A stretch of 64,000 bases of DNA, taken from Prorocentrum cordatum. Its lineage: Eukaryota. Under the pieces are notes generated by a model. It worked only from the letters and a program-made list of their open reading frames with translations. It was not told the origin of the DNA and did not search any database. The translations under genes were made by a program, and so were the position numbers. Below are positions 46,101 to 61,243 of this stretch, piece by piece (positions within the stretch are counted from its first letter, which is position 1; each line of letters opens with the position of its first letter). The stretch spans positions 1 through 64,000 of the forward strand of contig CAUYUJ010000064.1 of NCBI GenBank assembly GCA_963575745.1. The letters are read 5' to 3'.

Positions 46101-49100
46101 GGCGTCGCCCCTCCGCAAGCGCCTCCACGTCGCTCGGGCCCACGAGCCTCGCACGGCCGTACCCATCCGAGCCCTGGATCAGCGCCTGATCGCCCCAGAC
46201 GTGAACCAGCTCTGTCAGCTCGATCACCTCGCCGATCTTCGCCAGGCCCAGCGGTTCGCACAGCATCCAGACCCCACCAACCCGAGGCGAGAGCGTCCCC
46301 ATGACGCTAACCCCACCGGCCCCGCAGTCCAGCACACGGAGCGCCCCGCCGATCTCGGCCTCGGTCGGAAGCGGCCTCGCCACGAAGCCCGGCTCCAACG
46401 ACGCGGTGCGACGGCACTCGGTCATCCGCGCGCCCAGCTCATCGGCGTCCGACCGCTCCTTAAAGCCGCACAGCCGCTGCGGCGCCGCGCGGTGGACACC
46501 ACCCGCGAGCGGCCAACAGCGGCAGGGCCCCGTGGCGTGATCCGCCGCTGTCAGGTCCTCGACCCAGACATCCCGATCTGGCGATATCACGTACCACAAC
46601 GCCTCCGACACCGGCCAGACAAGCACGCGCTCGTGGTCCACGTCGTCATCCACATAGGCGACGCGGACTTTCTCGCCCGGTCGAACCTCACGCAACCACC
46701 CCGCCACCGCGCCTCGCACGTGCAGCCGTCGTGACGGACCCGGGCGCGGCGGCATCCCTGCCGCGCGCGCCCGTGGTCGCCGCGGTCGCCCGTGGTCGAC
46801 GGCACTGGCACCCGGCCGCGACCGCATGTGCCGGCTGCGTCGCCAGCAGCGCGATCACCGGCCCCCAGGGCCCCGGCCCCTCCACGGGCTCGGGCCCGTT
46901 TGTGGCGGGGCAGCTCTCGCAGGCCGCGAGCGCCGCCTCGCAGCGGGCAAGCGCCCACGCTGGCGACCCCTTCGGGCCGCTGTCCGCCGAAACCGCCAGC
47001 GGAGGCGGCGGAGGCGGCGGGGGCGGGGGCGAGGGTGGCGCCGCTGGCGAGGGCAGGTCCCTCACGACCTGCGCCAGCTACAGCACCAAAACCGCCCAGG
47101 CCGCGCCGGCGCCGCCGCGCGGGACCATCGGCCAGGCCGTTCCTGAGCAGCTTGACCCTTGATGGCAAGAGGTAAACGATCGTAAACGGCACAACTGTGC
47201 AACAGCTAGATTGTTGATAGCGGTTTAGTCTATCTCTCTGTCTGCTGAGGGTGTGGAGGGGGAGCAGACGCTGAGTTCGTCCTCCTCCTCTGGCAGTGCT
47301 GGAATCCCGGCCAGGCGGTATCCCTCCTCAAGGGTGTACCCCAGGCTGAGTCGACGCAGGAAGCGAGTCAGGTGAATCGCCTCCCGAACAGGGATCGTGA
47401 GGGGGGCCCTCCGGCGCCACGGATGCACCAGGCCCGGCCGCGCCGCCACCAGCAAGGCACGCACGGAGGCAAGGAAGCGAGCACGGGCACGACGCGTTGC
47501 CGCAGCTGTGCCAATGCTCCTATTGCCCCGGGGCGTACTTTTGTTTTTCTGGCGCGCGCCCATGGTTCTTGAGCCAAACGGGTACGGACCCTCATCCGTC
47601 CCGCGGCTTGCCAACCGAACGACTGGCAAATGCAGCTCCTAGGCTCAGCTGTGTGGCTGCTGGCCCTCCCAGACGCGTCACCGCAGCCGGGGAGGGCCAA
47701 CTAATGACTATGTTGTCCCGGCCGCGTGGCCGATGAACGTTTGGAGGGCCAGGTTTGGCCCAGGAGTTTCGGCCACGCTCGCAGGACACGGTTTGTGCCC
47801 GCGGAGACAATAAATCGCACCCGGAGTAAGCTTAACAGACGTGATTCACAGGAGCTAACCTACACGTGCTTCTACCACAAAGTTAAATCTTACAAGTGCA
47901 ACTCGCGAAGCGAGCTTGAATATATACTATAAGTTGTGGAGAACAGAATGACAAATTGCCCCCAGAATGCTCTCGGCAAGTTCGCGCTGCAGTGAGCCGG
48001 CGTGCCGGCAACTTGTCGCACCAGCCTTTACACTGCTCGCACCAGCTCTCTGCTCGCACCGGCAACTTCTCTTCTCGCACGGGCATCGCTTCTTCTCGCA
48101 CGGGCATCTCCTTGGCAGCCACGGAAGCGCTCACTGATAGCCACAGGCATGGCGTCTGAGGAAAATGAGAAGTATACCCCCGAAGTGGCGACACGCCGGC
48201 GTCCACCCAGCTAGCGTGGACATTAGAAGTATACAAATAATCATTACACGAAAATGCAATGCCGCGGGACCCTGCGAAAAACGACCCCTTTTGGCTGAAA
48301 TGGGTCGTTTTCTCCGGCGGCACACATTCGTGAGGCGTGACCCCAAGGCGGCCCATCCCCGAGACATTAGCTAACAAAGGCGTGATAAACTTGGCATGTT
48401 ACATACGTGGCGAAGGCGGATACTCGGGAAAAATACAAGGACGTGTGGCAGTTTTTCCACACCCCCCTCGCCGAGCAGCGTGTGAGAACATTCAGAATGT
48501 CTGGCGACAAGGCCTCAAGGCCTGGTGCGGATCATGCCCATGAGGTCGCGGGCCTCCATGAACCTTGCCGGGGACATGGCCTTCGTGAAGCCGTCGCCCC
48601 GGTGCGTCGCGGTGGGCGCGTGCTTGAGGATCATCGCGCCGCGCTCCACCACAAGCTCGTGCAAGAACCCGATGGACACCTTGTGGGTTCTCTCTAAGAA
48701 CTTCAGTTTCTTGCTGTAGCCCTTAGTGACCGCAGAGATGGCCTGCGTGTTGTCCACGAGCGCCACCAGCGGGATGTCGATGCCAAGCATCCGCTCGAGG
48801 AGCATCTGCGTGGGAATGCCCTCGTGCTTGGTGTTGTGGCTGAGAGCCACCGTCTCCGCTTCGGCTGTCGAGCCGGCCGTGGACGTCTGCTTGCGAACAG
48901 CCCACGAAAGCGGCCAGCGCCGACCGGAAGTCGGGCTGTGAAGTTCCACCAGGACGCCGCCTGTAGACTTCGTGTGCTCTGAGTCGCCAGCCCAGTCGGC
49001 GTCCGACCACATCAGGAGCTCCAGGTCGAAAATGTCATCGGGGGCCATCTCGGCGGCGAGGGCCATGGGGCCAGCGGCCTTCAGGTAGGCGTACAAGCGA

Positions 49101-52100
49101 ACCAGTGCTGCGTCGTGGGTTGTGCTCCACCTTGACACCACCGAACAGAGGCGCTGCACGGCGACGGCGATGTCTGGCCGTGCGACCCGGGACAAAAACA
49201 GCAACGTCGCAACGTGCGAGGCGCAGCTGCCGGCGAAAACGCCGGGGCGCACGCCGTCTTCAGCCCACTGCTCCGGCGAGAGAAACGGCGACGTCACCTT
49301 GCGGAGCTCACCCCCGTACTCGCTAGCGAACCTGGCGAGGGCGTTGGCCACATAGTCGTCCATGTCCGTGTGGAGCCGACGAGCGGCCGACGGGCAGGCA
49401 GGGTTGACCGGGTCCATGGTGTAGCGGGCCCCCAAGTACCTCTCGATCTCCTGCTCCCGCTCCTTGAACACGATCGCCGTGTCGAGCGCCCTCCAAAATG
49501 GCCCGGCGATGCTCGGCGGAGCGATCATGAGCATGTCGTCCACGTACACGACGAAAATGCCTCCATCAGGGTGCACATGAACTCCAGGATGGTCGAGGCC
49601 AGCGGGCTCCCAGCCATGCTGCTTGAGAATGCTGTTCAACTTGGCTTCCCACAGCGCCCCGGCCTCGGGGTGGCCATACAGAGCCTTCTTGAGCCGGCAA
49701 TGAGGCCGGACATACTTAGGTCTCTGGCGTGCTGCGCCGTCCAAGAACCAACTGTCTGGCCACCACTCCCGTGGGAGCTCGACGTAGGTGGGGATCCGGA
49801 ACGGAGTGTCGATCAGAGCCTGGAGGTATGCAGCCTCCGCGTCCCTCAGGCTGACCTCCCGGCCGGCGAGGGCCGCGGCCGCCAGGGCAGCGCGTGCCGC
49901 GGCGAAGGATGCCGGAGCATTGGCAACTTCTTCGAACAGGTCTGCAGCCGACACGCCCGACTTAGTTCGGATGTTGGATCCTTGAAATACCACTCTAGCC
50001 TTCCATTGCTGAGCATCTTTTCCAAGCTCTTCTCCTTTTATCCCCAGAATTGCAAACACCCGGCCCAGCATAGCGTCAGAAAGGGACTCGTCGTTCAGAA
50101 GGTCCCGCAAACTGTGAACATCGCTGGTGTCCCAGACCTGCTTGGAGCGCATCCCGTGCAGCTCCTTCTCCAACGCCTTGCGGGCACCGTCGCAATCTGC
50201 CTCGGACGATTTGGGCTTGACCACCCGTGTCACGAGGGCGCACCACAGAGGGTGGCGCGGCGGGCCAGCATCATGCTCACGATGCTCGTGGCGCGGGTCG
50301 TCGTCACTGTCGTCGATGGCGGATGTGCTTTTGAAGAATGCCCGGGACCGCGGGACGCCAGGAGCAGCAGGTAAAATGCCTGCACGGCGAGCGCTCCAGA
50401 AGAGACGTGCGAACTGCTCCGTGTACTGGGCGGTCTGCTTCGCAATGTTCCCGCGGCAGCGGACGAACTCCTTGCTGTCGGCAGCTTCGTCGACGGAATA
50501 ATTCTCGAAAGTCATCGTAACGGAGTCGTCCGTGGAGCACAGCGTCCACTCCTTCTGGGTGTACACCACGCGGCCTGCATGCTGATGCTGCTGGCCGACG
50601 GCGGAGGCCGATACCTTCACGAACTTGCCGCCGACGGTGTTGATCAGCTGGTGCACGCGGTCGTTCGACCACAGGTCGGAGTTTGTAGGCCACTCCCAGG
50701 TGACGTCCTGGCCCTTGTCACGAGCGTAGGTGCACACCTTCGCGACATTGGTGATCAAGGCCCGCGTCACCGCCATGGGGACGGCTGTCCAGATCATGGT
50801 CCTCAGTTTCTTACGGGCCGCCCTCTTCAAGATGTCTTGAACAGCTCGGAGGGTCTTCTCGGCGGCAAGGTCAAGCTGCTCGGTCACGCGGATGGCGATG
50901 CACCTGGCCGGGACGAAGGCGGACAGGCAAGACTCCGGAGAGCAGCACAGCTCGACGAGCATCTGGTTGTACTTGCCGCTCATGATGGCTGGCATCGCTG
51001 CGGCGATGATCTCAGGCACCGTGGGCGCCTGTATGACGAGGCCAGCCGGTGCTGCTGGAGCTGCAGGTCCTGCGGCGCGGCCGGAAGCCACGCAGGCATC
51101 GCTGGAAGGAGCATGGGCGTGCTGCCCGCCAGCTGCGGCCGAGCCTCGGTGCCAAGTATGCCGAGGCGGCTCGTAGTACACCTCGTGCGGGGTGCCCGAG
51201 AAGGCAGAGCACGCGAGGCGAGGCATCGATGGGACGGCCGTCACGACCTTGCCCTTCGCCTTCAGGTTCTGATAGTCCTCGCGCCTCTTCTCCTGAGCTG
51301 CGAACCCTGCGGGGTCAGCAGCCTTCCACTTGTGACGCTCCGCCTGCCTGTGCTTCATGGTCAGGGAGAGCCACACCTCTGGCTCGAGCGTAGGCGGACG
51401 AGTGGACCACGGTGGCGCCCACACCGAACGCCTGATGTGGCCGTCGGCGCCAAAGTCGTCTCGCCTCCAGCCGCTCGGCGGCGAGCGCCCGGGTCCAGGC
51501 TTGATCTCCCGCTGCACGACGGGGTCGGCGTCGACGCCGAGCCGCGCAGCTTCGGCGACGTCGGGCTCGACCGCAGCATGACCAGAATGAGGATCGTCGG
51601 CGCCTGCGTCTCCATCGCCGGCTTGGCCCACGACGTCCAGGCCCTCCTGGGAGTCAGGATCGATGGCCAAGGCGACGTCGAGCATCGAAGCCCTCGTCGA
51701 AGAGAACTGGGGGCTGTTCTCCTTCAGCATCCCGTCGTACGCAAGCACGTCCTCCTCGCAAGGCTCGTCGGCGATGAGCTCATAGCCCCCCTCGGCGTCG
51801 TCGTTGGTGTGCGGCGCCGGCAGGCTGAGGTCACGGAATGCGCCGTTGAACGCCAGGCGCTGCGCTAGAGGGAACGTCACCTTCGACGGGAAGACGACGT
51901 CGGCGACGGTGCGGACGCTGACTCTAGAGGCCCGGCCGTCGGCCAGGATGGCCGCGAGCGGGACGATCAAGTAACTCTTGGCCCACTGCTCGGCCGGGCC
52001 GGCCGCTACGCCGACCAGAAGTGCAGGCACCAGTCGGTTCTTCCATTTGCTGGAGCTGCAGGGGTCGCCCTCCAGCTTCGGGAGCTTGGAGCCGGCTGGC

Positions 52101-55100
52101 GGCCGGAAGAGGACGAGGGCGCCGAACGGGTAGATGACGAAGGGAGCTGGCTCCCCAAAGCGGCGTTGCCACCGAGTGAGGCCGGCCTTGTTCTTGACGC
52201 TGCCGTTGTAGTTTGCCGCCCAGTGCCGCTCGGCGAGAGGCCACCAGCGCTCGCTGAGGCCGGACTGGTGGAGGGAACATCGCGCGCCCTCGATCGCCAC
52301 CCGATTCATGCGCTCGATCTTGCCGTTGGCTTCAGCCCGGCGCGGTGTCGATTGATAATGCGCGAGTGGGCGCTTGCTGCGCACCACCCGCGCTGCTGCC
52401 CTGAACTCGGGCGCAGAGTCGGTCCACCACCTCCGAATCTTCGGCGGGACGGAGTCGAAGGAGCCCACGCTGTTGAGCACTGTATCGGTGTCCCGGCGGC
52501 GCGCCGGGTACGGCGAGAAGAACTCCGTGGACTCGTCCAGGATGTGCAGGCTGTAGGGCGATGCCTTCCTCGCCTCAGATCCGCGCTCCATTTCGATGTG
52601 GTCCATGTGCACAAGGGCCCCGAAGGACTCGACGGAAGCGTCCGGTGCATGAAGCTCCACAGCTGGAGTGGGGCGGCGCGAGCTGCGGCTCTTCGCCGTC
52701 TTCCCGAAGTCGCACCCCGCGCAGACGCCGGGCGGGCATTTCGGCAGGTGCGTGGCCAGGTGGAGGATGGACTGCGGGTCGTTATGGATCGATGCGTCGA
52801 TCACCACGTCGTCCTCGCAGACACCGCACTTCAGCGGGATCCCGTCCCAGTCAATCTCCGCGTCGTGCTCGGTCGGATCGCCCTCGAGCACGCGTTCGAA
52901 GTCTTGCAGCGCCTTGTCTGGGCCACCAGCGCTGGCAGCAGGCGCAATTGTCGAGGGCGGCGCTGGCGGCGCCTCCCCAGGATCGGCAGCGGCATCCAAG
53001 GCAACAACATTGGCTGAGGCCTGCTGGTCGGAGTGCGCACTGAGGGGCCCCCCTGCGGGAGGGGCCACATGGTCGGCCGCTGCGGCGGCCTGGGCTGCGG
53101 CGTGGGTTGCCCCATTCGCCGCTCCAGCGACCTCCGCTGCGGCGGGGGCTGCGTGGTCAGCCTCTGCGGAGGCCATGGCAGGCATGCATCGCACCTGTCG
53201 GCGAGCGCCGGCCGGCTGGCTGGGGCGGCTGCCCGCCACCATCGGGACGAAGTTCTCCACGCGGACGTCGACCTGCGAGCCCTCAGGCGCGTAGAACTCG
53301 GGCTTGTCAGCGAACGGCTCCCACACGAAGCGGTAGCCATGCTGGGCGCAGCGGCGCCCGAGCGAGAGCGCCGGAATGGTATCTGGCAGCTCGATGGCCT
53401 CGGCATCCTCGTTCAGCGCCTCCAGGCCCACAGTCACGGTGGTCTCGGGCGCGATCACGCCGTTCGCCGTGCTCAGGAAGCAAAGGTCGTCGCGCTGGCG
53501 GCGGACGCCTTGGGTCCCTACGGGGACCAGGTCATTGCCAGTGCCGGAGTCCAAAGCGAACTCGTCAAGGTCGTCGCTGGGGCCACCAGTGGCCGGGGCG
53601 GCGCGGCAGACGGCGCCCGGCACTTTGGCCTTGCCAGGGCCAACGTGCTTGAACGCGCAGTTCTCGCCGTTGGTGCACTCGCCCTTGGGCCAGAAGCGGC
53701 ACGCTGGCCGGTCATCTGGCTTGGCCGCGGCAGCGGCGGGGGAGGTGGCGGCGGCCGCCGCTTTCGCCTTCGCCTGCGCCTTGGCCTTAGCCTTAGCTTT
53801 GGCTGCGGCCTCAGCTTTGGCCTTGGCCTTGGCTTTCGCCGCGGCGGCACCTGGCGCAGAGGCGGCCCCGACGTGCTCGAACTTGCAATTCGCACCGAAG
53901 CGGCACGAACCATCCCGAGCAAACATCTGGCAGATCTCACCGGAGCGGACCTGCGGCGTCGCTTGCGCCTTGGCCTTCGCAGCAGCGGTGGCTGCGGCTG
54001 CGGCTGCGGCGGCCTTGGCGGGGGCGGCCTTCTGAGGCAGCTTCATCAAGTCGTCCCGCACTTGCCCGCGCTGACGCCGCACGATCTCCCGCCGCGCGGC
54101 GTTGTAGAGGAAGGCGGAGGTGCGGGTCGCGGTGCCCTCCTCGGCGGCATCATAGGTCACGAAAGCGGGCTCCAACCCCTTGCACTTCCGGAGCTGGCAC
54201 TCGAGGAGCGAGCACAGCATGTCTTCGTCCGGCACCTTGGCCAAGGCCATCAAGGCGTAGTCCCAGGCATTCAAGAAGCCCTCGAGGTCCCCTCCGAACC
54301 GGAGGCCCACCAAGGTGGTGAGGTCGACGCTCATCGCCTGGCCGCGCTCGATTGTGTACCTGTAATACACCATGTACAGCGCGCAGCGGCCGGAGAGCGG
54401 CAAGCCCATCCTCGACCGCTCCTCGCGGTAGATCAGCAGCTCACGCTTCAAGTTGCTGTTGGCGATGGCCAAGACGGCCTCGGCGAGCGCGGAGTCGAGA
54501 TCGTCCCACCTCTTCTGCTTCTCCGCCAACGCCTCGAGCTCCGAGATGTCGTTGACGGTCTCGATGCGCTGCATCCACCGCATTGTGCGGCGCTTGCTGC
54601 GCTTGCTCGCTGCGTTCACCTTCACGTAGGTGTCCTGCACCCACTCCCGAAAGCCCACGGCAGAGGGCAGCGGGTCCAATGTCAAGGACTTCACCGCTCC
54701 CTTCCGCCGGCGGATGTCGTCCTCAGTCGAACTCGACGAGCTCGAGGGTGACCTCTTACTCTTTCTGCTCTTCCGGCTGCGGCGCGCGCCGGAGGCCCCA
54801 GGCGTGCTAGGCGACGAGTCGTCGCCGCCAGCGCCGCCGTCACCGCCAGGGCGGCGAGGGCCCCGAAGCCCAGGAGGGAGGTCAGGCTGAGCTGCGGGGG
54901 CCTGCGCTGCGGACGGGCGCTGCTGCAACTGGGTCGGGAGCCTCTGGACTGGCTCGGACCGCACGCTGCCACCGGCGCCAAGGCGGTCTGGCGGGCCGCC
55001 TCCGCCGGGGGCGCCAGCGGCCGCGATGTGAGCCCTCATGGTGACCCCGGCCCCATGGCCAGGGAGCACGCCGCGATTCGGGCCAGGGCGCGGCTGCGCG

Positions 55101-58100
55101 TGCGGCGCTGGCGCCGGCTCGGACGCGGCCGCCGCGCCCGGCTGTGGCGCGGCCAACGGCCGCGAGGGCGTGGCCATGTGGAAGTGCTGCGGCTGCGTGA
55201 GGACGCCGTCCGCAGAGACGAAACGCCCTGTCAGGCGGTCAGGCTGCGGTTGCAGCGGCGGCGGAGGAGGCTGGGAGAGCACTGGATCGTGCTGCGGCGG
55301 CTGCACCCGCCGCTCCTCGGCCACCGATGCGATGTGTTTCCAATTCTCGACCTCCTGCTCGAGGATGTCAACACGCTGCTGCAGCGCGGTCTGCACCTCA
55401 AGCTGCTCGCCGCGCTGCGCCTCAGCCGTGGCTGCGAGGTCATTGGCCCATTGCTGGGCTCGGTCTCTGAATGCATGCACGCGCTGCTCGGACTCGGTGA
55501 GCCGAGAATGGAGCACCGTGACCTGCGCCTCCAGCCCTGCCGCGCGGTCGGCCCGGAGTTTCGTCTGCTCCTGCTGGGCCTCCAGATTGGCAATCTGGGC
55601 TTCGTATTGGCGAAGCTGCAGCCTTGTGCGGCCCTCGAAGCCGACGAACGCCTGCTGTGTGGAGGACTCGAGCTGCGCCGCTGCGGCGGCGCGCTGCTGA
55701 GCCTCAGCGGCCTGCGCCTGCGACTGCTGCTCTGCCCTGGAAGCCGCGGCCTCCAGTTCGCCCGCGGCGGCCAGGCGCGAGGAAGCCGTGGAGACCACTG
55801 CGCTGAGCTCCACGCGCTGCGCCTCGAGGTTCCGGAGCGCCTGAGCATGGATCGCATCGCACTCCTCGCGGCGCCTTTGGTCAGCAGCGGCGTATGCAGC
55901 AGACTCCGCGGCCAGGATGCCGGCAAGCTGCTGGCGGTCCGTCGCCGCCATCTGCTGCTCTGCCGCACGGAGCTCGCGCGAGCTCACCGCAAGTCTCTCG
56001 TGGCACTCGTGTTGGGCCGCGGCTGTCGCCTCGTCCAACCGGCGCTGCATGAGCCCGCGCTCGGACCGGAGGTCTGCGTGAGCCTGGGCGCTGAGAGCCT
56101 CCGTGCGTTCCAGAAGAGCCACCTCCAGACGCTCAGTCAACGCTGTTTCTTTCGCCTGGAACTCAGACTCGAGGATCGCCGTCTGGGTCTCGAGCGCCGC
56201 ATGCTGGTCAATGATGCGGCTGAGCTCGCCGGTGAGGTCGAGCCCTACAGCGCTGGGTTCCTCATCATCCGCGCCAGCGTACAGCAGCGTGCGGCTGCGG
56301 TCCGCCCGCGACGCATCAGCGACGGGCACAGCGGCCGAAGGCGTAGGCGCGGCCTGCGACGAGGCACCGCGACCGGATCTGCCTTCCACACCGCGGCCGC
56401 GGAAGGGCAAGACAGGCCGATGCGCCGGCCGCGGGCGAGGCGGCGGCATGCCGGCCGCAGCCTCCGCGAAAACTGCGGGGAGCACCAGGCCGAGGTCCTC
56501 GTCCGCAGCATCGGCGAGCGGGATCATCTCGCCAAGGTTGTTGGGATTTCTAGTCGCCATGGTCTCAAAGAGCTTTCGGCTGATAACCTGTTGATAGCGG
56601 TTTAGTCTATCTCTCTGTCTGCTGAGGGTGTGGAGGGGGAGCAGACGCTGAGTTCGTCCTCCTCCTCTGGCAGTGCTGGAATCCCGGCCAGGCGGTATCC
56701 CTCCTCAAGGGTGTACCCCAGGCTGAGTCGACGCAGGAAGCGAGTCAGGTGAATCGCCTCCCGAACAGGGATCGTGAGGGGGGCCCTCCGGCGCCACGGA
56801 TGCACCAGGCCCGGCCGCGCCGCCACCAGCAAGGCACGCACGGAGGCAAGGAAGCGAGCACGGGCACGACGCGTTGCCGCAGCTGTGCCAATGCTCCTAT
56901 TGCCCCGGGGCGTACTTTTGTTTTTCTGGCGCGCGCCCATGGTTCTTGAGCCAAACGGGTACGGACCCTCATCCGTCCCGCGGCTTGCCAACCGAACGAC
57001 TGGCAAATGCAGCTCCTAGGCTCAGCTGTGTGGCTGCTGGCCCTCCCAGACGCGTCACCGCAGCCGGGGAGGGCCAACTAATGACTATGTTGTCCCGGCC
57101 GCGTGGCCGATGAACGTTTGGAGGGCCAGGTTTGGCCCAGGAGTTTCGGCCACGCTCGCAGGACACGGTTTGTGCCCGCGGAGACAATAAATCGCACCCG
57201 GAGTAAGCTTAACAGACGTGATTCACAGGAGCTAACCTACACGTGCTTCTACCACAAAGTTAAATCTTACAAGTGCAACTCGCGAAGCGAGCTTGAATAT
57301 ATACTATAAGTTGTGGAGAACAGAATGACAAATTGCCCCCAGAATGCTCTCGGCAAGTTCGCGCTGCAGTGAGCCGGCGTGCCGGCAACTTGTCGCACCA
57401 GCCTTTACACTGCTCGCACCAGCTCTCTGCTCGCACCGGCAACTTCTCTTCTCGCACGGGCATCGCTTCTTCTCGCACGGGCATCTCTTTGGCAGCCACG
57501 GAAGCGCTCACTGATAGCCACAGGCATGGCGTCTGAGGAAAATGAGAAGTATACCCCCGAAGTGGCGACACGCCGGCGTCCACCCAGCTAGCGTGGACAT
57601 TAGAAGTATACAAATAATCATTACACGAAAATGCAATGCCGCGGGACCCTGCGAAAAACGACCCCTTTTGGCTGAAATGGGTCGTTTTCTCCGGCGGCAC
57701 ACATTCGTGAGGCGTGACCCCAAGGCGGCCCATCCCCGAGACATTAGCTAACAAAGGCGTGATAAACTTGGCATGTTACATACGTGGCGAAGGCGGATAC
57801 TCGGGAAAAATACAAGGACGTGTGGCAGTTTTTCCACACTAGATCATTACTGTGCCCGCACTCTCATGATCAGCATCAACATCAGCAGCAGCAGCATAAT
57901 CACCATCACCACCACCATCAGCATCAGCATCAGCATCTGCATCAGCATCAGCATCATCATCATAATCCTCCTCATCAGCAGCATCATCATTATTCTCATG
58001 AGCATCAGCATTATAATCATCATCTGCAGCATCATCATCATGATCAGACGCAGCAGCACCAGCAACAAGAGCATCATCAACAACAACATCATTATCAGCA

Positions 58101-58338
58101 GCATCATCATCCTAATCACCAGCAGCAGTAGCATCCACATCCGCATCAGCATCAGCATCATCATCATCATCAGCATCATCAGCATCATCATCATCATCAT
58201 CATCACCATCATCACCATCATCCGCATCATCTGCAGCATCATCACAGTCGTCATCAGCATCATCATCAGCATCATCAGCAGCATCATCAGCAGCATCAGC
58301 ATCAGCATCCTCGTCACCATCATCATGATCATGATCGT

Positions 58339-58383
<45 letters not shown>

Positions 58384-58449
58384 TATCATCATCATCATAG
58401 TCATCACCATCGCCATTAACATCACCATCATCAACATCACCATCATCAG

Positions 58450-58491
<42 letters not shown>

Positions 58492-59317
58492 TAGCAGCAT
58501 GGTCATCATTATCATCAGCAGCATCATCATAGTCATCATCAGCACCAGCCTCATCATCATCAGCATCATCATCGTATCCATGGTCGTCATCGTCAAAATC
58601 ATCAGCCTGATTAACCACATCACTATCATCGTCATCATCGGCATCAGCATCGTCATCACTATCATCATCATCAACAACAGCATCATCATCAACATCGCCA
58701 TCATCGACAACATCATCATCATCATTACCAGCATTGCCGTCGTCACCACCATCATCATCAGAATCATCCTCATCACTAGCAGCAATTTCTTCGTCATCAG
58801 CTTCCGCCTCCACCTCCTCGTGTGTCCAATGGATGCACACGGCTCTCTGCAACTTCATGAACGGGATTGTCGATTGTCCGCGCTACCTTGACTTTGGTAG
58901 CCGTTGGCCCGCCCTGTGCACATGATCCAACTGTCCTCCAAACTATGGCTCTTCACCTGTCCAGGCCTTCACGCCTGCACAGGTAATCCGGAAGGGAGAG
59001 GCCATCATGACGCCCCTCACAGCCCCCAAGAGATCCCCGACAAATACCGAATAGGACGCCAAGACTGCCACAGCCAATGTAGACACGTGGATAGAGCGGG
59101 CGCGCAACATGAACACACAACTGAGCTCGGTGCTAGCACTCGGACGCCACCAAGCGAAGCGCGGTGGTGGACAGGCGTGGCAGCACAACATGATGATCCT
59201 CACCGCCCATATCCCCCTCCCCGTGATCTCTCTTCTCCCCCATCTCCTCGTGCTCATGCTGCTTCTCATCCCCCTCCTTCTTCATATCCGCCCTCCTTCT
59301 GCTCCACATCATCCCCC

Positions 59318-59671: not shown

Positions 59672-60063
59672 GCAGCATCGTCATCATCGCCATGGTCATC
59701 ATCAGCAGCAGCAGCACCATCACCATCACCACCAGCATCACCAGCACCATCACCATCATCATTATCATCATCACCATCATCATGCAGCAGCAGCATCGTC
59801 ATCATCATCGTCATCGTCATCCTCGTCACCATCAGCATCATCAGTATCATCATCCTCGTCATCCGCACCACCTTCATCATCGTCATCATCATCATCATCA
59901 CCAGCATCAGCAACAGCATCATCATCAGCAACCTCATCATCAGCATCATCGTCATCATCGTCATCATCATCATCATAATCCTAATCATCAGCAGCAGCAG
60001 CAATAGCAGCAGCAGCAACATCCCCGCCAACATCGTCATTATCACCACCACCAGCACCACCAC

Positions 60064-60118
<55 letters not shown>

Positions 60119-60272
60119 AGCAGAATCATCATACGAATCATCAACCCTATTCCCACTCTCCTCCGCCACCTCCTCCCTCCTCCTCCTCCCTCCTCCTCGT
60201 CCTCCCTCTCCTCGTCCTCCTCCTCCTCCCTCACTTCTTCCTCTTCCTCCTCCTCCTCCTCCTCCTCATCAG

Positions 60273-60342
<70 letters not shown>

Positions 60343-60563
60343 GTCAGCATCAGCATCATCATCATGATCAGCATCAGCATCAGCAGCAGCATCATCATCA
60401 GCAGCATCATCAGCAGCATCAGCATCAGCATCAGCATCATCATCATCATCAGCATCATCATCAGCATCATCATCATCATCGGCATCATCATCATCATCAT
60501 CATCATCCTCATCAGCAGCATCATCATCAGCATCAGCATCATCATCACCATCATCACCATCAC

Positions 60564-60623
<60 letters not shown>

Positions 60624-61184
60624 CCTCTCGTCTTCCTCTTCATCCTCATCCTCCTCGTCCTCCTCCTCCTCCTCCTCCTCCTGCTCCTCCTCCTCCTCCT
60701 CCTCCTCCTCCCCCTCCTCCTCCTAATTCTCCTCCTCCTCCCTCTCCTCCTCCTCTCCCTCCTCCTCCTCCTCCTCCTCCCCCCTCCCCCTCCTCCTCCT
60801 CCTCTCATCCTCCTCCTCCTGTTCCTCCCTCATCCTCCTCCTCTTCCTCTTCCTCGTCCTCCTCCCTCCGCCGCCTCCTCCTCCTCCTCCTCTTCCTCTT
60901 CTCCTCCCTCCTCCTTCCTCCTCCTCCTCCTCCTCCTCCTCCTCTCCTCCTCCGCCTCCTCCTCATCATCATCACATCATCACCCTCCTCATCCTCCTCC
61001 TCCCCTCCTTCTCCTCCACCTCCTCCTCCTCCTCCTCCTCCTCCATCCCTTCCTCCTCCTCCTCCTCTCCTCCTCCTCCTCCCCCTCCTCCCTCTCCTCC
61101 TCCTCCCCCTCCTCGTCCTCCCTCTCCTCGTCCTCCCTCCTCCTCCTCCTCCGCCTCCTCCCCCTCATCATCATCATTTTCATT

Positions 61185-61243
<59 letters not shown>

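Follow-up and report, generated by a model that had tools for sequence, protein, structure and literature searches.

Background

Relict dinoflagellate spliced leader (DinoSL) sequences of retrogenes were reportedly described by Slamovits and Keeling in 2008. In these relicts, a DNA copy of the spliced leader (SL) stands before a coding region and derives from reverse-transcribed, SL-capped RNA (PMC7245778, PMC12014239, PMC2488372). According to one preprint, the functions of genes with DinoSL relicts and of reverse transcriptase (RT) genes do not overlap, and retroposition and retrotransposition are treated there as independent (10.1101/783902). Here we analyze SL likeness in a different setting, a Ty1/Copia retrotransposon on the minus strand of a stretch of 64,000 nucleotides (nt) from Prorocentrum cordatum (contig CAUYUJ010000064.1, positions 1 to 64,000; the whole stretch is referred to as the window). 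The long terminal repeats (LTRs) of this element carry an SL-like sequence directly in front of a small open reading frame (ORF), termed ORF0. Unlike the relicts, the sequence is present in both LTRs of an autonomous element and at a fixed place, apparently the U3/R border, rather than as a decaying tag on a single retrocopy; moreover, conservation is confined to its 3' 8-11 nt, in families with pol sequences that are 24-52% identical. The position of this conserved tail leads us to infer that it marks the U3/R border in a Copia lineage that has become adapted to obligatory SL trans-splicing.

In retroviruses and LTR retrotransposons, the R repeat is a short sequence that is present at both RNA ends, between U3 and U5, ends at the poly(A) site and permits the transfer of minus-strand strong-stop DNA. 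In the model proposed below, in contrast to the classical repeat, the 5' copy of R would come from host trans-splicing, so that a host RNA would dictate part of the LTR. Genes borne by LTRs have a precedent in sag of the mouse mammary tumour virus (MMTV). Additional ORFs of LTR retrotransposons resemble ORF0 in being extra conserved ORFs beside gag-pol; those of plants, however, lie in the internal region (PMC7264820), whereas ORF0 lies wholly inside the LTR, in the predicted U5 and upstream of the primer-binding site (PBS), and has no detectable family. A further parallel is Cer1, a Ty3/Gypsy element of C. elegans, which is likewise an LTR element in an SL trans-splicing host and whose RNAs have an SL acceptor close to their 5' ends. 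Its 8-kb gag-pol RNA, however, is not trans-spliced, only a 2.4-kb spliced RNA has SL1, and the accessible text describes no LTR-encoded SL (PMC3315495). Within the open literature searched, no published link of DinoSL to LTRs or to the R region was found in the accessible text.

Results and discussion

The SL-like motif and the element that carries it

The SL-like 21-mer TCCGTACCCGTTTGGCTCAAG, followed by AACC and the ATG of ORF0 (56940), is present exactly as given in the preliminary description of this locus, at 56965..56945 in the 5' LTR and at 47588..47568 in the 3' LTR. Also borne out are the 112 codons of ORF0, its TAA stop (56604-56602) 13 nt short of the LTR end, with the PBS and the gag-pol ATG at 56560 coming next, and the sequence tttgag|accATGG before the gag ATG. 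Compared with the canonical 21-nt SL, the window motif shows two substitutions and one deletion (one T fewer), such that 19 of 22 positions match; its deviations are C7, G10 and three Ts, where the canonical leader has G7, A10 and four Ts. The two copies are counted as one event, since the LTRs are copies of each other.

That the motif stands above background is supported by shuffling, in which none of 100 shuffled sequences gave a match at up to 3 mismatches, and by first-order Markov simulation of the window, in which none of 60 sequences contained a match within 3 edits, whereas the window itself contains two such matches. A chance origin was rejected on these grounds. SL RNA genes also contain the SL sequence, but the window motif is followed by AACC (AACCATGG) instead of a GT donor and the LTRs gave no Rfam match, and an SL RNA gene was likewise rejected. 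The features of the element, in the order of transcription, are the following:

57839..57844 (unstranded), second copy 47206-47211: target-site duplication CTAGAT, flanking the LTRs
56589..57838 (minus): 5' LTR, 1,250 nt, TG..CA, matching 47212-48461 apart from 1 mismatch
56966..57838 (minus): predicted U3, 873 nt, with 11 ATGs and a GC content that is flat across codon phases
56945..56965 (minus), 3' LTR copy 47568-47588: SL-like 21-mer TCCGTACCCGTTTGGCTCAAG, from a motif search of the window
56945..56955 (minus): core TTTGGCTCAAG (SL positions 12-22), kept in related LTRs; predicted start of R, ending in AG, the proposed trans-splice acceptor
56915..56925 (minus), 3' LTR copy 47538-47548: A-run AAAAACAAAAG, resembling the dinoflagellate poly(A)-site motif; predicted R/U5 border
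56602..56940 (minus), identical copy 47225-47563: ORF0, an open reading frame of 112 amino acids (aa), mostly within the predicted U5
56577..56588 (minus): putative PBS GGTTATCAGCCG, adjoining the 5' LTR; found also in 20 related loci as a sense-strand 12-mer
48515..56560 (minus): gag-pol ORF, 2,681 aa, ATG at 56560, from the open reading frame, Pfam and alignment to relatives
48462..48472 (minus): polypurine tract GGCGAGGGGGG, read from the sequence directly upstream of the 3' LTR
47212..48461 (minus): 3' LTR, pairing with the 5' LTR

With its paired TG..CA LTRs, target-site duplication and RVT_2 domain, the element is an intact Ty1/Copia LTR retrotransposon. In a self-comparison of the window, the two LTRs are offset by 9,377 nt and differ only at 48111/57488. 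The true target-site duplication may be 5 bp (TAGAT) plus one base that matches by chance. The PBS-like GGTTATCAGCCG abuts the LTR and is a putative PBS by position and conservation; ARAGORN found no tRNA genes in the window.

An SL tail common to related Copia loci

The window was compared with 80 related Copia loci from marine metagenome contigs (376 kb), whose best pol segments are 24-52% identical to that of the window. The exact SL tail TTGGCTCAAG occurs 25 times on the sense strand, in 23 loci, and once on the antisense strand, against a chance expectation of 0.36 per strand. The shorter GGCTCAAG occurs exactly at 42 sense sites in 37 loci and at 3 antisense sites in 3 loci (5.7 expected per strand), and TTTTGGCTCAAG is found within 1 edit on the sense strand of 23 of the 80 loci and on the antisense strand of one. 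The motif sites lie 267-1,508 nt past the pol stop (927 nt in the window), in the non-coding stretch before the next gag ORF. Among the fetched loci, L043 alone has its two LTRs as a direct repeat, and each of them carries the motif; the identical ends of L057 resemble an assembly wrap. For the other loci, the LTR limits were taken from the pol stop, the PBS and circularly permuted contigs that run from the pol end through the LTR to gag, such as L019 with its single whole LTR.

A test that is independent of the motif gives the same picture. The PBS 12-mer GGTTATCAGCCG is found on the sense strand of 20 loci, and 19 of these have at least 141 nt upstream of it (L025, with only 23 nt, was left out). 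The motif, with at most 1 mismatch, lies 39-482 nt upstream of the PBS in 18 of the 19 loci, compared with 356 nt in the window; the nineteenth, L069, has TTTTGGACCAAG, with 2 mismatches, 116 nt upstream. Near-duplication within L017-L020, L036/L038 and L050/L051, together with the kinship of L001 and L024, reduces the 19 loci to about 14 distinct families. In the 19 loci examined, conservation of the PBS itself reaches 14 nt, GGTTATCAGCCGTA (for example, L019 1876-1889), and the final bases of this stretch, CCGTA(G), coincide with SL positions 2-7, probably by chance.

On this comparison, the SL tail is a feature common to a broad dinoflagellate Copia lineage. The preliminary description had pointed to related LTRs as the place to look for conservation of both the motif and the ORF; the SL tail is indeed kept there (18 of 19 PBS loci), whereas ORF0 is found in none of the 80 loci. 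Likewise, the layout had been described as not familiar from other Copia elements, which holds for an ORF0 inside the LTR but not for the SL motif, which the 80-locus survey finds to be general in this lineage.

Of separate interest is L022 (100-2101), in which an SL relic matching at 19 of 21 positions is fused to a 5'-truncated RT-RNase H ORF of 633 codons, with the first ATG 79 nt later; the locus has an LTR-type motif of its own 435 nt past the stop. L022 looks like a retrogene from an internally trans-spliced Copia RNA, and, as far as such a relic can show it, Copia RNA serves as a trans-splicing substrate.

Extent of the SL likeness

To delimit the likeness, 27 LTR instances were lined up on the core, leaving out duplicates and sites that are within ORFs or unclear (L017:4649, L019:3932, L013:7251, L009:1507, L022:111 and L069:5658). 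SL positions 13-22 served as the search anchor, with GGCTCAAG (positions 15-22) required, so that conservation there carries no weight; the SL is matched at position 14 in 96%, at position 13 in 78% and at position 12 in 70% of the instances, and only position 12 is outside the anchor. SL positions 1-11 match in 11-44% of the instances, which is about background. Likeness to the 5' half of the leader (up to 4 edits to SL positions 2-12, gaps allowed) is seen in 6 of the 27 instances, as against 5.8% of random controls: the window, L055, L049, L060, L071 and L077, with the window and L055 closest at 3 edits each. Thus, the SL tail is universal in these LTRs, and full-length likeness of the kind seen in the window is the exception.

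In the DNA contigs of sequencing run X1, depth is about fivefold higher over the motif and the 20 nt upstream of it (56945-56985), and the contigs break at 56945, 56953 and 56985, with flanks on both sides that differ among the contigs. These breaks hint faintly at sister LTR families that share, or have recombined at, this junction; unitig breaks alone could give the same pattern.

Probable position of the motif at the U3/R border

Three lines of evidence bear on where the motif lies within the LTR. The first is the A-run: AAAA is found within 30 nt downstream of the motif in 18 of 26 instances and is absent from all 26 corresponding windows on the upstream side; its frequency among background 30-nt windows is 7.7% (binomial P 8e-15). 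AAAAG/C has been reported as the poly(A) site of dinoflagellates (PMC2488372).

The second is the near absence of ATGs downstream of the motif. The leaders from the motif to the gag ATG contain, over 12 families, 4 ATGs in 6,246 nt, where about 106 are expected (Poisson P 8e-40) from the 400 nt upstream of the motif (73 ATGs in 4,319 nt). These families were taken as one per distinct context, with a downstream ORF of at least 250 codons in the contig; duplicates and contigs ending before gag were dropped. Leaders of 437-557 nt with no ATG at all are found in L001, L017, L024, L026 and L050, and that of L043 has none over 1,135 nt. In the window, ORF0 supplies the only ATG in the 384 nt between the motif and the gag ATG, as against 11 in the 873-nt U3. 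An ATG-free leader of this kind resembles a scanned 5' untranslated region, which suggests that translated RNA starts at the motif or immediately upstream of it.

The third is spacing. The gap between motif and PBS is just 39 nt in L057 and 48 nt in L055, and R and U5 would therefore have to fit inside 39-48 nt. Taken together, the A-run, the ATG-free leader and the short spacing place the motif, by indirect evidence, at the U3/R border. This agrees in part with one of two readings in the preliminary description, that of an SL-like sequence at the U3/R border acting as a transcription-start mimic that escapes trans-splicing: the position is supported by the order of pol stop, motif and PBS, by the A-run and by the ATG-free leader, but the mimic is not favored, as only the SL 3' 8-11 nt are conserved.

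By itself, the ATG-free leader tells no more than that RNA competent for translation starts at the motif or close to it. The motif could then be kept just as the context of a trans-splice acceptor, or as a passive scar for translation, with no role in strand transfer and with R elsewhere. We consider this quite unlikely. Dinoflagellate acceptors need just AG and no upstream consensus (PMC2488372), which leaves 8-11 SL-identical bases unexplained; the motif-PBS gaps of L057 (39 nt) and L055 (48 nt) leave almost no other place for R; and a passive scar would not outlast divergence to 24-52% pol identity.

The same positional facts (ATG-free leader, A-run and short PBS distance) fit equally well with an RNA that starts about 12 nt upstream of the core without trans-splicing. 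The tail would in that case be an internal promoter or initiator, or a translation signal, and R would be wholly LTR-encoded. Going upstream from the core, the first ATG is met after 13-18 nt in 7 of 12 families, at the SL-equivalent 5' edge, and the window motif differs from the canonical SL and is seemingly inherited through DNA. An SL-containing message without trans-splicing has already been suggested for the PCP gene (PMC2488372), and in C. elegans the full-length RNA of Cer1 escapes SL1 trans-splicing (PMC3315495). On the other hand, an RNA end that imitates a mature one should keep the 5' half of the leader, and it is this cap-proximal half that is unconserved (positions 1-11 match in 11-44% of instances). 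In addition, an ATG lies inside the 22-nt SL-equivalent of L042 (at -5) and of L080 (ATGGCTCAAG), and these would become upstream AUGs. Finally, the 5'-half likeness in six scattered and highly diverged families needs reacquisition from the authentic SL, for which such a start gives no route. The dinoflagellate SL is not known to have a promoter role, and overall we regard a start encoded in the LTR itself as somewhat unlikely.

A possible replication cycle through the host spliced leader

The explanation that we favor, with roughly an even chance, is a cycle in which the genomic RNA receives an authentic SL at the terminal AG of the motif, with the LTR-encoded tail acting as the 5' part of R for first-strand transfer. 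Transcription from the 5' LTR would start somewhere upstream of the motif, and the authentic 22-nt SL would be spliced to the AG that closes ...TTTGGCTCAAG, giving an RNA of the form SL-AACC-ORF0-U5-PBS-gag-pol. At the 3' LTR, the RNA would pass through U3 and the encoded SL tail and be polyadenylated at the A-run some 20-30 nt further on. R would then consist of the SL tail and about 10-30 nt, its 5' copy coming from the host SL and its 3' copy from the LTR. Minus-strand strong-stop cDNA would run through U5 and R into the SL, copying at a minimum its 3' part, then anneal to the tail of the 3' LTR and extend into U3. In this way, the tail would stay matched to the host SL in every family, and the 5' half of the SL would be copied occasionally and then decay; the window family, with 19 of 22 positions matching, would be one that still shows a copied 5' half.

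That conservation ends inside the SL may mean that transfer takes place short of the 5' end, or that copying is blocked within the SL; in either case the 5' half would go uncopied. Among Iso-Seq reads of the DinoSL type, about 70% begin at SL position 2 or 8 (Stephens et al., PMC7245778), which is compatible with a block and is no evidence for this element in particular. As for gag-pol, it would be reached by leaky scanning past the ORF0 AUG or, alternatively, through a second trans-splice at tttgag|acc, the site proposed as an acceptor in the preliminary description.

A cycle of this kind would account for several features of the LTRs. The SL-identical bases would be constant, though the LTRs are otherwise unalignable, because strand transfer uses the SL tail; fresh likeness to the 5' half would appear in a few scattered families because of repeated copying from the authentic SL; and ATGs would be tolerated in the encoded 5' half (L042 and L080) because that half is spliced away. 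The SL relic of L022 also fits, in showing Copia RNA as a substrate of SL trans-splicing.

A number of observations weigh against trans-splicing coupled to strand transfer. Recopying in each cycle predicts a canonical SL, and yet the window motif is non-canonical (C7, G10 and one T fewer). G10 is seemingly common to relatives, as judged from protein, by in-frame translations upstream of ORF0 in P0006 and P0009 (...GFRNRFGSRTM and ...GFRNQPWLKNHG), and one DNA contig of run X1 has the same variant with four Ts, followed by different downstream sequence. Because the window variant is non-canonical and G10 is seemingly present in relatives, at least SL positions 1-11 would have been inherited through DNA. 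An acceptor in the 3' LTR would cut the genomic RNA too. The cluster of ATGs located 13-18 nt upstream of the core (in L026, L048, L050, L057, L071, L043 and the window, at 56973-56975) might be a mark of a start site at the SL-equivalent 5' edge, or simply the boundary of the ATG-free zone.

The conservation is also narrower than it might seem. Positions 13-14 vary (GTGG, TCGG, ATGG and CTGG), which reduces the invariant part to GGCTCAAG, only 8 nt; the families are not all independent, L017-L020, L036/L038, L050/L051 and L001/L024 being close kin; and the representative family sets behind the leader, SL-position, A-run and 5'-half counts were picked by the analyst. RNA-library contigs that map to the LTR cover U3 only: one of 151 nt from run X9 (56958-57108) and two, 90-95% alike, from run X12 (57512-57810). 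These are expected under every model, because U3 is transcribed from the 3' LTR, and there are no RNA ends among them. All four mapped sequencing runs consist of assembled contigs, and missing cover over ORF0 carries no meaning.

ORF0 and the captured mRNA hypothesis

ORF0 is very probably a real gene. A word-index search of 5.8 billion proteins identifies relatives in two clusters, at 95% (112 aa) and 73% (114 aa) identity, and an exhaustive profile search of 1.84 billion representatives adds a third, P0043, at 46% identity (111 aa, E 3e-16); a profile built from all three clusters found no further relatives. The family has 10 members in these clusters, or 11 with the window protein. Start, stop and length are conserved, including the carboxy-terminal SPSTP..EID, the single indel between clusters consists of whole codons, and one relative comes from a transcriptome-derived set. 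Broken copies would be absent from protein databases, and P0009 resembles one that has a frameshift near its start. None of the 11 family proteins has a Met after the start, compared with 1.8% Met in gag-pol, and the ORF0 region has no internal ATG in any frame. The GC content by codon position is coding-like in ORF0 (0.68/0.58/0.70), as compared with 0.69/0.52/0.80 in gag-pol and a flat 0.53-0.58 in U3.

One member, P0005, is 99% identical to ORF0 and has the EukProt label Pyramimonas sp. CCMP1952, a green alga, yet the polyprotein of the window element best matches Prorocentrum; the label may reflect a mixed or mislabelled culture, and NCBI taxonomy lists no strain of that name. Three further profile matches, P0042, P0044 and P0045 (448-1,751 aa, with 7-17 stretches each), were set aside as repeats, P0044 being a tandem repeat protein and the other two being judged by the pattern of stretches alone.

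The family is narrow in range. A tblastn search with six ORF0-family proteins against the 80 related loci gave nothing (best E 0.03), and a protein-pattern scan of metagenome contigs gave 570 pattern matches and no relative. The absence from the 80 loci suggests that ORF0 is a recent addition of one sub-lineage. Its location in U5 is suggested by the A-run AAAAACAAAAG, which overlaps ORF0 codons 6-9; the first codons that overlap it read QKNK, and KGKKK in P0043.

The second reading in the preliminary description was that the motif and ORF0 arrived together, a trans-spliced host mRNA encoding ORF0 having been retroposed into an ancestral LTR, with the motif as its relict. The SL-like sequence, matching at 19 of 22 positions, does stand 4 nt before the ORF0 ATG, SL relicts do mark retroposed dinoflagellate mRNAs (PMC7245778, PMC12014239), and, of the SL copies in the 27 instances, that of the window family is one of the two most complete. 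The same SL tail, however, occupies the same LTR position in many families without ORF0, the exact motif being found in 23 of the 80 loci and ORF0 in none. Among the marks of a retrogene, the SL-like sequence directly upstream is present; a parental host gene and a one-off insertion were not found, given that there are three clusters only and that the motif occurs in families lacking ORF0. Protein searches returned no cellular ORF0 homologue, only the three clusters of 111-114 aa, and no poly(A) remnant follows ORF0. The captured mRNA hypothesis fails because the motif predates ORF0, and we consider it very improbable.

ORF0 has no Pfam match and no usable ESM Atlas match. Its AlphaFold2 model is weak (pLDDT 60.7), with three helices at residues 20-41, 59-73 and 78-84. 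Our guess is that ORF0 is most likely a small, basic, helical accessory protein that may bind nucleic acid; an Arg-rich stretch followed by L-x3-L-x2-L-x-L, in our reading, recalls RNA-export adaptors. On the SL-capped RNA proposed above, ORF0 would be the first cistron, with its AUG 26 nt from the cap, and the next AUG would be that of gag, 380 nt downstream. Since there is no other AUG between the two, gag-pol would probably be translated by leaky scanning.

Other features of the element and the window

Pfam identifies two CCCH zinc fingers (residues 875-972) and an RVT_2 reverse transcriptase (residues 2183-2347, E 1.1e-9) in the gag-pol polyprotein; a DSGTG protease motif was read by eye. 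The top three matches to the polyprotein are from Prorocentrum cordatum (best 88% identity), followed by other dinoflagellate or marine sequences. The polyprotein was aligned with 14 relatives, and its carboxy-terminal region is alignable to them. An integrase-like region at about residues 1270-1450 also aligns with the relatives, of which P0018 and P0038 have Pfam rve; the order of integrase before RT is based on this alignment, because Pfam found no rve match in the window polyprotein.

Between the integrase-like part and RT, a stretch of about 300 residues (approximately 1760-2050; 50400-51300, minus strand) is conserved in the 15-sequence alignment. It contains the motifs CC..S, RVT..DL and WEWP..S.LW and has no Pfam match. 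The gag part has two CCCH fingers instead of the usual CCHC knuckle and a long amino-terminal region rich in Ala and Gln.

A tandem array at 57790-58900, with spacings of 9-15 nt and more than 100 overlapping copies, starts within the 5' LTR, about 50 nt from its outer end, and extends about 1 kb into the flank. An Rfam search of 46800-58200 gave no matches in the LTRs and two sub-threshold snoRNA-like ones, both in this flanking array. Beyond the element, an open frame at 59985-61523 (plus strand) contains an SPX domain (Pfam E 7e-9). Of 45 long open frames outside the element, no other has a Pfam match, so that the remainder of the window looks poor in genes.

Implications for dinoflagellate Copia elements

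Two problems are touched by these results: the preservation of the R-U5-PBS end of an LTR element where the host swaps mRNA 5' ends by trans-splicing, and the origin of the thousands of SL-tagged retrogenes in dinoflagellates. The SL tail at the probable U3/R border of many Copia families suggests an answer to the first problem and a testable link to the second. It also provides, together with the A-run and the PBS GGTTATCAGCCG, a signature by which the LTRs, RNA starts and poly(A) sites of dinoflagellate Copia elements may be annotated.

A more far-reaching proposal, which we regard as doubtful, is that Copia elements replicate from SL-capped RNA with the host SL as the 5' copy of R. Because every cellular mRNA has the same leader, RT complexes would then have homology for strand transfer in common with every host mRNA and also among themselves. 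If true, this would provide a direct mechanism for the massive formation of SL-tagged retrogenes and for chimeric LTRs that recombine at the motif, and the elements could be expressed from read-through transcription, with no need for a promoter of their own.

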